DNA of 64,000 nt from a virus (IMGVR_UViG_3300021354_000007:3947-67946); one strand, 5' to 3'. Shown: positions 19,201-23,747, counted from the first letter of the stretch. Numbers and translations: made by a program. The notes: a model not told the origin generated them from the sequence alone.

Positions 19201-19866
19201 TAATTTCCATCCTCTATGAGTATGTTGTCTGCCACTAATTATACTACGTACACCATCACTGCTTAGATTATAAAACATATAAAAATCAAATCTAGTTCCA
19301 GTAAAGGTTTCGTTGATGTGAGTGTTAACAAAATGATATATCGTGCGATCGTATCTAGGATTATTTTTACCCGAATTGTCTTTACATTTCATTTTACTTC
19401 TTCTCACGTCTTTTAGTTGGTCAGATTTCTCCTTACCATATAAATCTTCATATGACTTACCTTTAAATCTTAATATAGCTCTTACTGCAGTAGCTTTTTT
19501 AACGACATTTGTATGGGTTTTGCCAAACATGCCATTTTTATCACCAATCATAGCACTTCCTCCATCTAAACCATTTTCTAGAACTAGATTTGCCCATGCA
19601 CTAGATTCTACTATATTATTTTCTATAGAAAAATGCATGGCATGTTCAACTATGGAAGTATCGTGATATAACTCAGATACCCAAAGAGTTTCAACGTATC
19701 CTCTACCGTGAACTTTGATGTGATTTACCCAGCGCGTTCCAGAACCTTTATAACTATAAGGATCCTTCTTAGTAGTTTTGCCAAAATACATCAATCCAGT
19801 AATTGAATGTTTTTTGATGTAGAGATATGTTGGTTTGATTGGGACATAAATATTATTGCTAGTCAT
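19192..19866 (-). CDS. Free-standing GIY-YIG-type (Seg-like) homing endonuclease
   Basis: PTYLYIKKHSITGLMYFGKT, YKGSG, WANL..ENGLDGG, NGMFGKTH (NUMOD3-like); ATG at 19866 with AGGAG RBS. Confidence 0.85.
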   Translation of the reverse strand: MTSNNIYVPIKPTYLYIKKHSITGLMYFGKTTKKDPYSYKGSGTRWVNHIKVHGRGYVETLWVSELYHDTSIVEHAMHFSIENNIVESSAWANLVLENGLDGGSAMIGDKNGMFGKTHTNVVKKATAVRAILRFKGKSYEDLYGKEKSDQLKDVRRSKMKCKDNSGKNNPRYDRTIYHFVNTHINETFTGTRFDFYMFYNLSSDGVRSIISGRQHTHRGWKLSL

Positions 19867-19935
19867 TATAGACTCCTGTTTATTGTAAGAATGATTAGAG
19901 TTACTGGGACTGCCATCCGCGAGTAACACCTATTT
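19864..19935 (-). promoter_or_regulatory. Conserved structured leader of homing endonuclease gene 1
   Basis: GUUACU/AGUAAC stem, GGAU-GGCA-GUCC cap, then ACUCUAAUCAUUCU shared with the leader at 23668-23747. Confidence 0.7.
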
Positions 19936-20002
19936 GCTTTTTATACTATTTTAATGTATAATATATATTTATATAAATAAAATTTTACCTTAAGGATTTA
20001 TC

Positions 20003-20845
20003 ATGAATGTGTTAGAAAAGGATACTGTCGGAGGCATAAAAATAGCTTATGCCTCCGACCTTTGACTTCATATTGAACGGGGTGCGATAGATCTCAAGAA
20101 TGAAGGGAAAGCAGAGGTGTTAATATTGGCGGGAGATATCTTCGTTGCCAATGATTTAATGGAACAATCTAACAATACAGATATGATTTCCTATAAATCT
20201 AGTAGGATATATGATTTTATAGAAAATTGTTGTGAAGAGTTTCCAAATGTAATAATGGTATGTGGTAACCACGAATCATACGATTTTGATATTAAAGATA
20301 CAGTCAATCATATCAAGAAGCATCTTGGTCACCATAAAAACTTTCATTTGTTAGATAACAGCGTAATAGAACTAGGTGGCACATTATTTGTCGGTGGAAC
20401 TCTTTGGACAGATATGAATTGCGAAGATTTAGAAACTATCGACACTATCAGAAAAATGATGAACGATTTTCGTGTAATTAAAAACGATAATTATCGATTC
20501 ACACCTGCCGATGCTGTCACTAAATTCAAGGAAACAACTGATTATATTGATTTGATGGCAACTATACACGACGATAAAGAAATAGTTGTAGTGACGCACC
20601 ACTCACCATCGTTTGGTTCTATCGATCCTATCTACGAAAACCAAACTATCTTAAATGGTGGATATTGTTCAAACCTCGAAAAATTTATTATAGATAGAAA
20701 GAATATTACGTATTGGGTTCATGGTCACCTGCATTGTTTGAACGACTATATGGTTGGCACTTGTAATGTGCTGAGTAATCCTAGAGGTTATATCAATTAC
20801 GAAGCATGTGCTGATAATTTTAAATTAAGATATTTTGAGGTATAA
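20003..20845 (+). CDS. Metallophosphoesterase with an in-frame UGA at 20063-20065 (recoded gene or pseudogene)
   Basis: AAGGA RBS plus ATG at 20003; KIAYASDL*LHIE, LAGDI, GNHE, THH, HGHLH, NPRGY all in one frame. Confidence 0.85.
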
Positions 20846-20846
20846 T

Positions 20847-21212
20847 ATGACACACCCATTTGAACACGTAAGAAGATTTATGATTGCGGGCGAACATAAA
20901 GTAGATGGTTCTTCAGAAGAACAGTCTTTATTATATGCTAACTTAGTTAAAGAAGAAATTACTGAATTTTGGACAGGTATCCTAAATGATAATGATATAG
21001 AAACCCTAGATGGTATTGCAGATTCTATCTGGGTTTTAGTCGGTTATGCACTCAGTAAAGGATGGGATATCAAAAGTGCTTTCGAAGAAGTGGCACGTAG
21101 TAATATGTCAAAGGTTGACTTAGAATCAGGAAAATTAATAAAAAGAGAAGATGGTAAGGTGTTGAAGCCGGAAACATATTCACCACCAGATTTGACTCCG
21201 TTCGTAAAATAA
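20847..21212 (+). CDS. MazG-like/PRA-PH family NTP pyrophosphohydrolase
   Basis: LVKEEITE...LDGIADSIWV...EEVARSNMSK...REDGKVLKP. Confidence 0.88.
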   Translation: MTHPFEHVRRFMIAGEHKVDGSSEEQSLLYANLVKEEITEFWTGILNDNDIETLDGIADSIWVLVGYALSKGWDIKSAFEEVARSNMSKVDLESGKLIKREDGKVLKPETYSPPDLTPFVK

Positions 21213-21870: not shown

Positions 21871-22108
21871 TTTTCGCAATAAAGAAACAGGTGAGGTGAT
21901 TGAGAAAACGATATCTTATAATGCTAAACTTGAATATTTAACACAGAATCCACATATGGAATCTGTTATTTTAACATCACCATCACTTGGAGACCCAACT
22001 AAACTTACTGCTACAAGAAAATTTGATACTGGATTTAAGGACGTGTTACAGAAAATACACGAAAAGACTCCAGGAAGTCAACTGGATAAATCATCTACTC
22101 AACTATAA
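21857..22108 (+). CDS. FmdB-like small protein
   Basis: MPIYDFRNKETGE...GFKDVLQKI; usual neighbour of phoH in T4-like phages. Confidence 0.7.
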   Translation: MPIYDFRNKETGEVIEKTISYNAKLEYLTQNPHMESVILTSPSLGDPTKLTATRKFDTGFKDVLQKIHEKTPGSQLDKSSTQL

Positions 22109-22122
22109 TAAGGGAATAAAAC

Positions 22123-22893
22123 ATGGCGCGTAAACCAAGAATTGTTGACACACATTTTGAGGACACCATGCAATATAAACAACCTCCAAATGAAAAGGTT
22201 ATACAAGGTGCTTCTAATAGACTGAAAATGCGTCTAGAAGACCTAAAGACGTTCACACCTCTTACCGATAACCAGAAGTTATTTTTTGAATCATATAAAG
22301 TAGGCGAATACTTTATGATGCTCAGCGGATCCGCTGGTACTGGTAAATCTTTCATTGCTTTGTATAAGGCATTAGAAGAAGTGATGGATAAGGGCAATTC
22401 TTTCAACCAAGTTTTGATTGTCCGTTCAGCAGTACAGACAAGAGATGTTGGTTTTTTGAAAGGTTCACTTGAAGAGAAGACTTCGGTATATGAATTACCA
22501 TATGAACAAATAGCAGATACTCTATTTGGTAAAAAGGGAGCTTATGGAAGACTTAAGGAACAAGGATACATTGAATTTATAACAACTACGGCAATACGTG
22601 GAATTTCTATAGATAATTCCGTCGTCATTGTTGACGAATGCCAAAATATGACCTGGGGCGAGTTATCTACTGTAATAACTCGTATTGGGCATAATTCAAA
22701 AGTTATATTCATAGGTGATACTAAACAAAATGATTTAACTAAAAAGTCTAATGAGATATCTGGTATGTCAGATTTTTTATTAGTTGCTAACAGTATGAAA
22801 GAATTCTGTCGTATTAATTTTACACCAGAAGATATTGTTAGATCAAGTTTAGTTAAATCTTGGATTATTGCTTGCGAAAAAAAAGGGTTTTAA
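22123..22893 (+). CDS. phoH: PhoH-family ATPase
   Basis: PLTDNQ, GSAGTGKS, GFLKGSLEEK, VDECQN, TRIG, GD..Q.D, DIVRS. Confidence 0.95.
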   Translation: MARKPRIVDTHFEDTMQYKQPPNEKVIQGASNRLKMRLEDLKTFTPLTDNQKLFFESYKVGEYFMMLSGSAGTGKSFIALYKALEEVMDKGNSFNQVLIVRSAVQTRDVGFLKGSLEEKTSVYELPYEQIADTLFGKKGAYGRLKEQGYIEFITTTAIRGISIDNSVVIVDECQNMTWGELSTVITRIGHNSKVIFIGDTKQNDLTKKSNEISGMSDFLLVANSMKEFCRINFTPEDIVRSSLVKSWIIACEKKGF

Positions 22894-23670
22894 TTTACAG
22901 TTTTCGAAATGCCATCTTGTCATATTACTTCCTTTACCTTCTTTATTACAATATGGGCAAATTAGTAAAGGTAAATTAGCCATAGTTATTTTCATTCTTT
23001 CAGAAGCAGCATCTTTATTAGACTGCTTCTGCATAGGATGAGTACCTTGTTTTAACATCATATAATTTGTATTTTTAAATCTATTAGATAATTTTATTCT
23101 ATTTTTAGGTAACTTACTTGGGTTATTGTTAGTATTTCTTTCTAACAATATAGCAATCATATCTTCTCTTTTGTTTAATATTGAGGTGTTTATTGATGCT
23201 TTAAGTCTTGAAGATTCGGTTTTTTTATAACTATCTACTCCATACTTTTTTAAACAGGTTTCTTTATTTTTTATAGGATTATTGAAGAATTCATTACCAT
23301 ATTTATTTAACATTAACTGTCTAAATTGTTTAGAACCAAATGATGGGCATTTATTATCATTATTATGTCCATTATACCAATCAGGAGAACTAGCACAATC
23401 TAAACATTGAAGAAATAAAGTTTCATAATCATAAGCAGATATTCCGTCTAAGTTTGTATCAATCCTTAATATCTCAAAAGAATCTATTCCTTCTTGATAT
23501 ATAATAGAATTAATTGTTGGAGATGAAGTGGTATATCCATTAGGTTGCATAAATTCAGATGGATTACATCCTTTTGCCCATTTAGCACCAGCATATAATA
23601 TTCTGGTTTCTTTGTGCTGGATAATGTAGAAATATGGAATTGTTTGCGTATAAATATCTATGCTGGTCAT
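22849..23670 (-). CDS. Free-standing GIY-YIG-type (SegE-like) homing endonuclease with C-terminal zinc finger
   Basis: PYFYIIQH...YAG, YTTSS, YETLFL, WYN; KETCLKKYGV; CPYC...RWHFENCK. Confidence 0.8.
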   Translation of the reverse strand: MTSIDIYTQTIPYFYIIQHKETRILYAGAKWAKGCNPSEFMQPNGYTTSSPTINSIIYQEGIDSFEILRIDTNLDGISAYDYETLFLQCLDCASSPDWYNGHNNDNKCPSFGSKQFRQLMLNKYGNEFFNNPIKNKETCLKKYGVDSYKKTESSRLKASINTSILNKREDMIAILLERNTNNNPSKLPKNRIKLSNRFKNTNYMMLKQGTHPMQKQSNKDAASERMKITMANLPLLICPYCNKEGKGSNMTRWHFENCKLKPFFFASNNPRFN

Positions 23671-23747
23671 ATTGATTCCTGTAATTAATAATAGAATGAT
23701 TAGAGTAGTTAGATACTGGTAATATCGTGAACTACAACTTATTTATA
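23668..23747 (-). promoter_or_regulatory. Late promoter plus conserved structured leader of homing endonuclease gene 2
   Basis: TATAAATA (minus strand, 23740-23747), GUAGUU/AACUAC stem, ACUCUAAUCAUUCU, ACAGGA RBS. Confidence 0.72.

Follow-up and report, generated by a model that had tools for sequence, protein, structure and literature searches.

Two genes of a T4-like phage raise the question of why nucleases that resemble each other only at their N termini should be preceded by the same leader. The stretch analysed here (the window) is 64,000 nt of a 67.9-kb IMG/VR virus contig (IMGVR_UViG_3300021354_000007:3947-67946); its T4-like character is given by encoded relatives of gp32, the gp5 hub-lysozyme, the gp6 wedge, a gp48-type tube cap and RNA ligase. 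Around the two leaders nearly all open reading frames (ORFs) lie on the + strand, the exceptions being two nuclease-like ORFs on the - strand, here called homing endonuclease genes: HEG1 (19192..19866, -; 224 aa, MTSNNIYV...) and HEG2 (22849..23670, -; 273 aa, MTSIDIYT...). A sequence-only reading of the window had taken the leader for a regulatory RNA acting in the nuclease mRNA. An alignment of 103 distinct copies of the leader and start region (the cassette) shows that a secondary structure is conserved on the antisense strand, the one opposite to the nuclease gene. Judged by promoter-like boxes and pairing patterns, the cassette probably encodes a cis-antisense RNA of ~70-90 nt with its own late promoter, a loop carrying an anti-Shine-Dalgarno sequence and a terminator-like bulged hairpin.

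In both window leaders, read in the sense direction, a hairpin is followed immediately by the 14-mer ACTCTAATCATTCT, a Shine-Dalgarno sequence and ATGAC(C/T)AGC. The 14-mer is exact at 19888-19901(-) and 23693-23706(-) and occurs nowhere else in the window or in the full 67.9-kb record. The sequence-only reading had described these two minus-strand genes as sharing a leader, and the same hairpin, the identical 14-mer and the MTS start were indeed found; both proteins begin MTSxxIY, and their likeness is confined to ~29 N-terminal residues (BLASTP E 0.003). The two hairpins (19900-19927 and 23705-23735) have the same two-stem architecture with compensatory changes, as had been said. What had been described as a 3x1 internal loop proved to be a bulged C, one covarying purine:pyrimidine (R:Y) pair and a second bulged C in the sense reading, the bulges being G on the antisense strand. 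The window's two copies by themselves make a weak case: 32 of 100 shuffles gave at least two matches at two or fewer mismatches, the single-sequence fold z-scores of the hairpins were -1.26 and -0.59, and MAFFT applied to these two leaders by themselves misaligned them. It is the family data that settle whether there is more here than chance, because 37 leaders beat the shuffled alignments.

The leader proved to be widespread among uncultured T4-like phages; copies were gathered from IMG/VR viral contigs by using several query patterns and a covariance model. Among 113 matches listed for the exact 14-mer, 10 loci had a true leader; most of the others were chance or coding matches, some of them in one unrelated conserved gene. 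The 12-mer combined with ATGACCAGC gave 65 stretches, one of them false, and from these 37 distinct leaders including the two of the window. The start region alone (ATGACCAGCANNNNTATWTAT) matched at least 119 stretches; the matches listed held 93 distinct upstream regions, of which 6 were plainly unrelated coding matches and 26 contained the exact 12-mer. A search with the HEG1 protein led to 12 loci, and a covariance model of the hairpin to diverged leaders at six of eight loci (L173 to L178 of L173-L180). A purpose-written hairpin finder, strand-neutral for stem 1 and the R:Y pair, yielded 101 distinct hairpins and also recovered copies that match none of the sequence patterns. The analysed set comprised 103 distinct cassettes (L149_8417 trimmed); L018_2888 (a remnant without nuclease gene), L175_1144 (diverged 3' part) and L210_9088 (shifted box) were left out. 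Most of the 103 had been found by patterns that fix AUGACCAGC and/or the 12-mer; 15 rows were not so fixed. Across the family, the conserved part of the 14-mer is CUA.UCA only.

The element was sought in databases as well. With Rfam 15 (cmscan, window 17000-27000, both strands, E <=10), no match fell on the hairpins or the 12-mer, in line with the earlier statement that no named RNA family could be assigned; the four weak matches obtained all lay off the elements, one of them (mir-2001, -) inside the HEG2 coding sequence. Neither megablast with 5.4 kb nor blastn with the 101-nt element gave a match among 50,697 phage records, so that no cultured phage in that set has the element. When proteins were searched by tblastn against phage records, HEG1 matched two Vibrio phages only (39% identity) and an endonuclease VII-like protein encoded behind another cassette matched 78 records.

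Double changes were present at all 11 pairs of the hairpin in the sense alignment of the 37 leaders. The hairpin cells of this alignment were 96.0% paired, against 71.5% after shuffling (0 of 500 shuffles reached 96.0%) and 29-45% with slid partners. Strand was assessed on the 101 hairpins of the strand-neutral finder. Read in the sense direction, stem 1 held 593 Watson-Crick, 7-8 A.C and 0-1 G.U cells. The R:Y pair was G-C in 46, A-U in 37 and A.C in 17-18 hairpins and never G.U, where independence of the two positions would predict ~17 G.U; the A.C cases were spread over at least 12 different stem backgrounds. On the antisense alignment of the 103 copies, 17 cells of this pair are G.U. Helix P1 without its innermost pair was 99.7% paired on the antisense strand and 97.2% on the sense strand, with 26 cells that are G.U in the antisense reading alone and none for which the reverse holds. 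An A.C in the sense reading is a G.U in the antisense reading, and the hairpin pattern is therefore as expected if the antisense RNA must fold.

The second helix, P2', points to the same strand, and more strongly. On the mRNA strand two A.C mismatches interrupt the complementarity between the core of the 12-mer, CUA(A/G)UCAU, and AUGACCAG; the same segments form an unbroken 8-bp helix (5'-CUGGUCAU/AUGAUUAG) with two G.U pairs on the antisense strand. The P2' cells of the 103-copy alignment were 97.0% paired on the antisense and 74.8% on the sense strand, 175 cells being G.U only on the antisense strand, and at least six contiguous pairs counted from the base were present in 101/103 copies on the antisense strand and in 0/103 on the sense strand. 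Among the 15 rows not fixed by search patterns, 14 had at least six pairs, compared with 42 of 194 chimeras between rows. Compensation was seen in several classes: in four different hairpin backgrounds UCUAAACAU (...AAACAU) was matched by AUGUCCAGC, and in one more by AUGUUCAGC; the others were CUAACAC with GUAUCAG, CUAACAG with CUAUCAG, UUAAUAC with GUAUCAA, CUAACAUC with GAUGCCAG, and CUACAAC with GUCACAG. Several of these compensatory classes can pair only with the help of G.U on the antisense strand. A further helix was considered and rejected, a long-range one joining the upstream TATAAATA to TATTTATA (codons 5-8): the window's HEG2 copy has 10 complementary bases there and L043 has a matching variant, and inspection of the other copies revealed no compensation.

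Taken over both helices, the antisense structure was 97.6% paired in the 103 copies, against 79.1% after shuffling (0 of 500 shuffles as high) and 24-51% with slid partners. RNAalifold, unaided, predicted both helices including the bulged pair, and the minimum free energy (MFE) was lower on the antisense strand in 101 of 103 copies (mean -20.07 versus -12.97 kcal/mol). The 5' stem-loop formed in the MFE folds of 95/103 copies, with the anti-Shine-Dalgarno mostly unpaired in 78/99.

These results bear directly on the proposal that the hairpin and the 14-mer act in the endonuclease mRNA, be it as a 5' stabiliser, as a switch that occludes the ribosome-binding site (RBS) or start codon in the manner of I-TevI, segB or Aeh1 mobE, or as the binding site of an autoregulator. 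The hairpin does pair well in the sense reading (96.0% in the 37 leaders, 97.2% in the 103 copies), and a late-promoter core, ATAAATA, lies within 30 nt upstream of the stem in 70/103 copies (at 3-20 nt), where it could drive such an mRNA; it is missing in 33/103. In the parts of PMC2677866 available, 5' untranslated regions (UTRs) of free-standing endonuclease genes with TATAAATA and a hairpin are described in 15 of 16 cases, and RBS-sequestering hairpins are reviewed in the available part of PMC2988020. Neither Shine-Dalgarno sequence nor AUG lies within the present hairpin, however; the window hairpins end 22-35 nt ahead of the Shine-Dalgarno sequence on the sense strand. Between 14-mer and start region, the pairing that the sequence-only reading had placed on the mRNA is broken there by the two A.C mismatches and does not reach six contiguous pairs in any of the 103 copies. 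The R:Y pair, with its 17-18 A.C and no G.U, is likewise at odds with folding of the sense RNA.

The position of the sense box may add to this. Its end lies 3-5 nt from the stem in 39/103 copies and 6-20 nt in 31/103; at the T4 spacing, a late mRNA driven by a box 3-5 nt from the stem would begin within the 5' arm and so be without part of it. Neighbouring genes lie mostly on the other strand, so that there would be little upstream read-through to guard against. By crude ORF-based calls, the upstream neighbour is on the opposite strand at 27/35 loci and the downstream neighbour at 25/31, with both opposite at 17/25 and both co-directional at 3/25; the earlier remark that the genes are inserted against their surroundings thus holds. 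The nucleotide-level conservation of codons 4-8 would also be left unexplained by a function in the mRNA. Selection for pairing acts on the antisense strand, and a role of the elements as an mRNA leader is judged quite unlikely.

The conserved codons provide the second line of evidence for an antisense RNA. Over the first 22 nt of the coding sequence, it is the nucleotides and not the residues that are conserved. Among 35 leaders gathered without regard to the box, 34 have T as the third base of codon 5 (position 15) while the residue there varies, and all 35 have A at position 10 and TAT at positions +19 to +21. Read on the opposite strand, the conserved TAT(T/A)TAT(A) gives the T4-type late-promoter box. 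Of the 103 copies, 72 have the core TATTTAT, 22 TATATAT, 6 TACTTAT, 2 TATGTAT and 1 TATTTAC. A constant 5 nt separates the box in codons 5-8 from the conserved GCUG at the start of P2'. The T4 late box is placed at -13 to -6. The T4 late promoter is described, in the part of PMC2988020 available, as a TATA box of 8 bp that precedes the start by roughly one turn of the helix. With the 5-nt spacer, nearly all predicted antisense RNAs would begin with GCUG, one base ahead of P2'. In a class with a shifted start (…AUCAGC AUG AAU AUU UAU…, MNIY), CAGC is no longer coding and yet stays in place, at an unchanged distance from the box, which argues against an explanation at the peptide level. Upstream in-frame ATG codons (METIMTS...) within the spacer 'acaATGGAAACCATT' were observed at L132 7652 and at L210 7336 and 9088; this class has a weak Shine-Dalgarno sequence and its start codon is uncertain. 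The box sequence also occurs elsewhere in the window, where TATAAATA stands just ahead of late structural ORFs (at 34662 before 34701 and at 58375 before 58410).

At the other end, five or more U occur in the 8 nt past the hairpin, read antisense, in 80/103 copies, where base composition would predict 10-26%; part of this U-tract is simply the nuclease gene's late box read on the opposite strand. From the predicted start to the end of the hairpin the distance is 54-78 nt (median 70). The box is predicted to fire and the hairpin to terminate the transcript.

The same box could instead be an outward late promoter for downstream phage genes, with the stem-loops as the protective 5' leader of a long mRNA and any antisense effect incidental. 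The strand-specific structure and the promoter evidence apply equally to this reading, and the neighbours usually run in the direction of the antisense RNA. T4 endonuclease genes do embed promoters for downstream genes (segG/gene 32, segA, segE, mobB and mobC, according to the available part of PMC2988022). A simple scan rates the hairpin as a weak terminator. The U-rich tracts past the hairpin in 80/103 copies speak weakly against a long transcript, as do promoter-like sites that the next genes of the window have of their own, situated after the cassette and ahead of the start codon: TATAAATA(+) at 19972-19979 and TTTACT-N17-TATACT at 23775-23803. An anti-Shine-Dalgarno held in a loop (78/99 copies) is typical of antisense regulators and not of leaders. 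An outward promoter is accordingly considered unlikely, and the short antisense RNA is taken up again here as the preferred reading.

In cassette 1 the late-promoter-like box CATAAATA (19845..19852, +) is the reverse complement of HEG1 codons 5-8. The predicted RNA (19858..19941, +) would start at the G 5 nt past the box and run through a U-rich tail, with two stem-loops between. Its 5' stem-loop (19859..19898, +) is closed by P2' (19859-19866 with 19891-19898), and the loop holds the anti-Shine-Dalgarno CUCCU; P2' has 9 contiguous pairs on the antisense and 3 on the sense strand. The bulged hairpin P1' (19900..19927, +) consists of 6 bp, the R:Y pair between two bulged G, 3-4 bp and the loop, and scored 65.5 bits with the covariance model. 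The MFE of cassette 1 is -19.2 kcal/mol antisense versus -16.4 sense. A near-consensus sense late box, TATAAAAA (19938..19945, -), lies 10 nt ahead of the stem, and an exact sequence match to TATAAATA at 19966-19973 (-) is a second candidate sense box for HEG1.

Cassette 2 has the exact TATAAATA (23649..23656, +) as the reverse complement of HEG2 codons 5-8. Its predicted RNA (23662..23749, +) would start at G 23662 and end in the U-rich tail AACUUAUUUAUACG. The 5' stem-loop (23663..23703, +) is closed by P2' (23663-23670 with 23696-23703) and carries the anti-Shine-Dalgarno UUCCUGU in its loop; the bulged hairpin P1' (23705..23735, +) scored 60.4 bits, and the MFE is -13.4 kcal/mol antisense versus -9.2 sense. 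The sense late-promoter box TATAAATA (23740..23747, -) lies 4 nt ahead of the stem, and its complement is part of the antisense U-rich tail.

On the preferred reading, the cassette would be a compact pair of late transcription units that converge over the 5' end of the nuclease gene and overlap by the entire 5' UTR. On the nuclease strand a T4-type late promoter would drive the mRNA; on the opposite strand the late core (N)ATAAATA in codons 5-8 would start the ~70-90-nt RNA with the G of GCUG, which corresponds to the C of AUGACCAGC on the other strand. The RNA would begin with the 5' stem-loop, whose 7-9-bp base P2' pairs the complements of the start-codon region and of the 14-mer and which would display the anti-Shine-Dalgarno in its loop. 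One unpaired A, hairpin P1' with two invariant bulged G around the covarying pair, and the U-rich tract would follow. Such an RNA would be perfectly complementary to the nuclease mRNA over the 5' UTR, the Shine-Dalgarno sequence and the start codon through codon 3, and could limit or delay translation of the nuclease by forming a duplex, with or without cleavage by an RNase. This predicted repression is modelled on the cis-antisense RNAs of toxic genes. The MTSxxIYT peptide would be a by-product, because its codons form the 5' stem and the promoter of the antisense RNA.

Several observations weigh against this account. The hairpin pairs well on the mRNA strand too, at 97.2%, and may function on both strands. 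For a plain terminator the invariant bulges are superfluous, and they are left unexplained; the invariant bulged G suggests a protein partner. The boxes of 31/103 copies depart from ATAAATA, TATAAATA is not enriched in the AT-rich window (17 found, 16.1 expected), and a single box proves nothing. In some stem classes the U-tract is poor, with a mean of 4.3-4.4 U behind AGTAAC and ACTAAC, and a simple terminator scan of the window did not call the AU-rich, bulged hairpin. The invariance of P2' in 88/103 rows is partly a matter of ascertainment because the search patterns fix those sequences; for the same reason, the evidence for covariation in P2' comes from 15 rows.

The genes behind the cassettes are diverse. 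Profiles were searched with 86 distinct downstream proteins of at least 150 aa. The PHROG matches were 314 in 54 proteins and 655 in 34, both named homing endonuclease, and an HNH PHROG in 10; the Pfam matches were NUMOD3 in 30, SegE_GIY-YIG in 9, DUF7487 in 9, GIY-YIG in 2, and a TnsA-like endonuclease and DUF559 in 1 each. One protein was endonuclease VII-like. Nucleases of GIY-YIG-like, HNH, endonuclease VII-like, DUF559, TnsA-like and DUF7487 kinds thus carry the cassette, and whatever their fold they begin M(T/S/F)S..IY, or MNIY/MSIY in the shifted-start class. The sequence-only reading had supposed a portable cis-regulatory element that accompanies unrelated nuclease genes; 103 distinct copies in front of at least five nuclease families bear this out, and we infer that the module is exchanged among nuclease families by recombination.

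Identical modules before at least five nuclease families imply recombination at the module, and this raises the possibility that the element works as DNA. It could be a hot spot of recombination or a cassette for shuffling, in the manner of the promoter/stem-loop cassettes of T4-type phages, or else an operator bound by a protein or a hairpin of single-stranded DNA. The very few wobble pairs in stem 1 would fit, and G.T is the most tolerated mismatch in single-stranded DNA too. Asymmetric invariant bulges, strand-specific wobble and a G.U-rich P2' (175 cells) are unexpected for a double-stranded operator, however, and recombination accounts for the spread of the module but not for selection on pairing. 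A function of the element as DNA is very improbable.

As for the two window proteins, the earlier assignment to different GIY-YIG subfamilies is plausible and weakly supported: there is weak support from predicted folds, and neither protein matched a Pfam GIY-YIG profile. HEG1 matched no Pfam family (GIY-YIG and SegE_GIY-YIG included) and no PHROG. It has an N-terminal beta-beta-alpha-beta-alpha domain, modelled by AlphaFold with pLDDT 83-96 over residues 11-100, and the top match of the model in the PDB was the I-TevI catalytic domain, 1mk0 (target-normalised TM 0.67, root-mean-square deviation 2.8, weak E 0.57). HEG2 had no match to Pfam GIY-YIG or SegE_GIY-YIG, a weak one to DUF7487 alone (E 0.0021) and one to phrog_3339, homing endonuclease (E 3.4e-4). 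Its model was weaker than that of HEG1, and the fold matches were all weak, Slx1 at the top (E 0.43-1.2) and I-TevI at rank 21. Sequence-profile searches of the PDB with both nuclease families gave zero matches.

Among known systems the nearest precedent is CfrI of cyanophage S-PM2, an RNA of ~200-225 nt that covers, in antisense, the 5' end of F-CphI and the 3' end of psbA, as given in the available parts of PMC2984593, PMC12197685 and PMC5931967. The S-PM2 record (L265) places F-CphI at 16685-17113 (+) and CfrI at 16545-16742 (-). PhoH, gp32 and baseplate genes are present in S-PM2 and in the window alike. Like the RNA predicted here, CfrI is a cis-antisense RNA of a T4-like phage that begins inside the 5' part of a free-standing homing endonuclease gene and runs back over its start and the region upstream. 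Unlike it, CfrI is longer, reaches psbA and is one locus in one phage group, whereas the cassette is a portable module in 103 copies. CfrI was examined as a possible homologue and rejected: the model of hairpin plus 12-mer (R1) gave no match at 16545-16742, its best matches lying elsewhere (E 0.14 and 0.93), and none of the cassette's features was seen on reading the CfrI locus. CfrI is an analogue, not a homologue.

The RBS-sequestering hairpins of I-TevI/II/III, segB, Aeh1 mobE and the marine 'fractured genes' share with the cassette a TATAAATA beside a conserved hairpin, a short 5' UTR, a presumed role in the restraint or timing of nuclease synthesis and their occurrence in several nuclease families (as far as the available parts of PMC2988022 and PMC2677866 go). 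The 15 of 16 'fractured gene' UTRs were read in PMC2677866 as RBS-sequestering, like that of Aeh1 mobE, and these hairpins may overlap with the present family. By those accounts, again as available in part, such hairpins stand on the mRNA, contain the RBS and are disabled in late transcripts; the cassette hairpin excludes the RBS, its pairing belongs to the opposite strand, and a second box faces the first. A cassette remnant at L018 2819-2974 has the late box, hairpin and 14-mer and lacks the nuclease gene and the GCUGGUCAU part. It sits between the halves of a split-intein ribonucleotide reductase (ORFs 2975-3559(-) and 1307-2818(-)) and is a 'fractured gene' arrangement after loss of the endonuclease.

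Small cis-antisense RNAs offer the likeness in size. Sok of hok/sok is the antisense RNA of a type I toxin-antitoxin system. Lambda OOP has 77 nt and P22 sar 68/69 nt (table of PMC12197685, in the part available). With OOP, sar and Sok the predicted RNA shares a similar size, complementarity to the start region, an interacting stem-loop, a terminator-like hairpin with U tail and a potentially toxic target; it differs in its T4-type late box, which overprints codons 5-8 of the target, in its link to homing endonucleases and in the invariant bulged G. The promoters that T4 endonuclease genes embed for neighbouring host genes, among them segG/gene 32, are also promoter-like elements inside nuclease coding sequence, but those described in the available part of PMC2988022 point in the direction of the nuclease gene and lie near its 3' part, whereas the cassette box is antisense, lies in codons 5-8 and is followed by a structured RNA. 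A literature search for a described equivalent turned up CfrI and the UTR hairpins of PMC2677866 as the nearest cases and nothing that matches the cassette. In PMC10690425 (>10,000 viral RNA candidates) homing endonucleases were met, in the part available, in the reference list only, and its supplements might list the motif.

Promoter/stem-loop (PeSL) cassettes of T4-type phages, in which an early promoter and a stem-loop flank variable ORFs, mediate shuffling. Early-promoter-like TTTACT-N16/17-TATAAT/TATACT sites adjoin the present cassettes; the cassette's own boxes are late-type. Repeats of the form AACGCTTTACT-N16/17-TATAAT/TATACT precede + strand genes of the window at 21252-21279 and 23775-23803, the latter directly adjoining cassette 2, and 'AAAGTAAAG' boxes, which resemble this motif, lie upstream of many cassettes at other loci. 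Cassettes may insert beside early-promoter-like sites.

Other features of the neighbourhood were recorded. The phoH gene (22123-22893, +) converges with HEG2, and the 3' ends overlap by 45 nt (22849-22893); overlaps of 4-45 nt between a nuclease gene and its convergent neighbour recur at other cassette loci. A third nuclease-like ORF (24806-25618, +) has a HEG1-type N-terminal domain (KPTYLYIKTHNVTGLKYFGKT), starts MKTDN and is co-directional with its neighbours; a covariance-model search found no cassette in front of it. Beside cassette 1, a metallophosphoesterase-like gene (20003-20845, +) reads ...ASDL-TGA-LHIERG..., with the in-frame TGA (20063-20065) in CUU UGA CUU at the usual position of the SDLH motif, directly after a 13-14-bp hairpin (20027-20059); a skip of 6 nt would give SDLHIE again. 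The gene may be a pseudogene or the stop an error of assembly; alternatively, the stop may be passed by readthrough or by a short ribosomal hop.

Two or three cassettes per contig were observed on L214, L185, L039, L135, L149, L186, L189, L194, L219 and L247. Cargo and hairpin stems differ between such neighbours, and the 5' stem and 12-mer are the same, so that cross-talk between their antisense RNAs would be possible. A further-reaching reading, possible but somewhat doubtful, takes the cassette for a 'governor' that homing endonucleases carry and that has been swapped among at least five nuclease folds. It would be an antisense RNA gene (promoter, target-recognition stem-loop, protein-handle hairpin and terminator) overprinted on the 5' UTR and the first eight codons. 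Since the 5' stem and 12-mer are near-identical across cassettes, a single RNA could, in a co-infected cell, regulate in trans all nuclease mRNAs that bear a cassette, throughout the family, and the bulged-G hairpin would recruit a dedicated RNA-binding protein or RNase of phage or host. Trans action, if true, would mean family-wide dosage control or competition among selfish elements.

The restraint of free-standing homing endonucleases has so far been known mainly from a few cases in T4 and Aeh1, in the form of mRNA hairpins and autorepression. If the antisense reading is true, a module found across many kinds of nuclease would be a new and general answer to the problem of nuclease restraint, and the puzzling conservation of MTSxxIYT would be explained as overprinting by an RNA gene and its promoter. 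The cassette would also provide a compact natural late-promoter/antisense-RNA/terminator part and an annotation marker for endonuclease insertions in uncultured T4-like phages, in which regulatory RNA genes would be seen to shuffle along with selfish nuclease genes.

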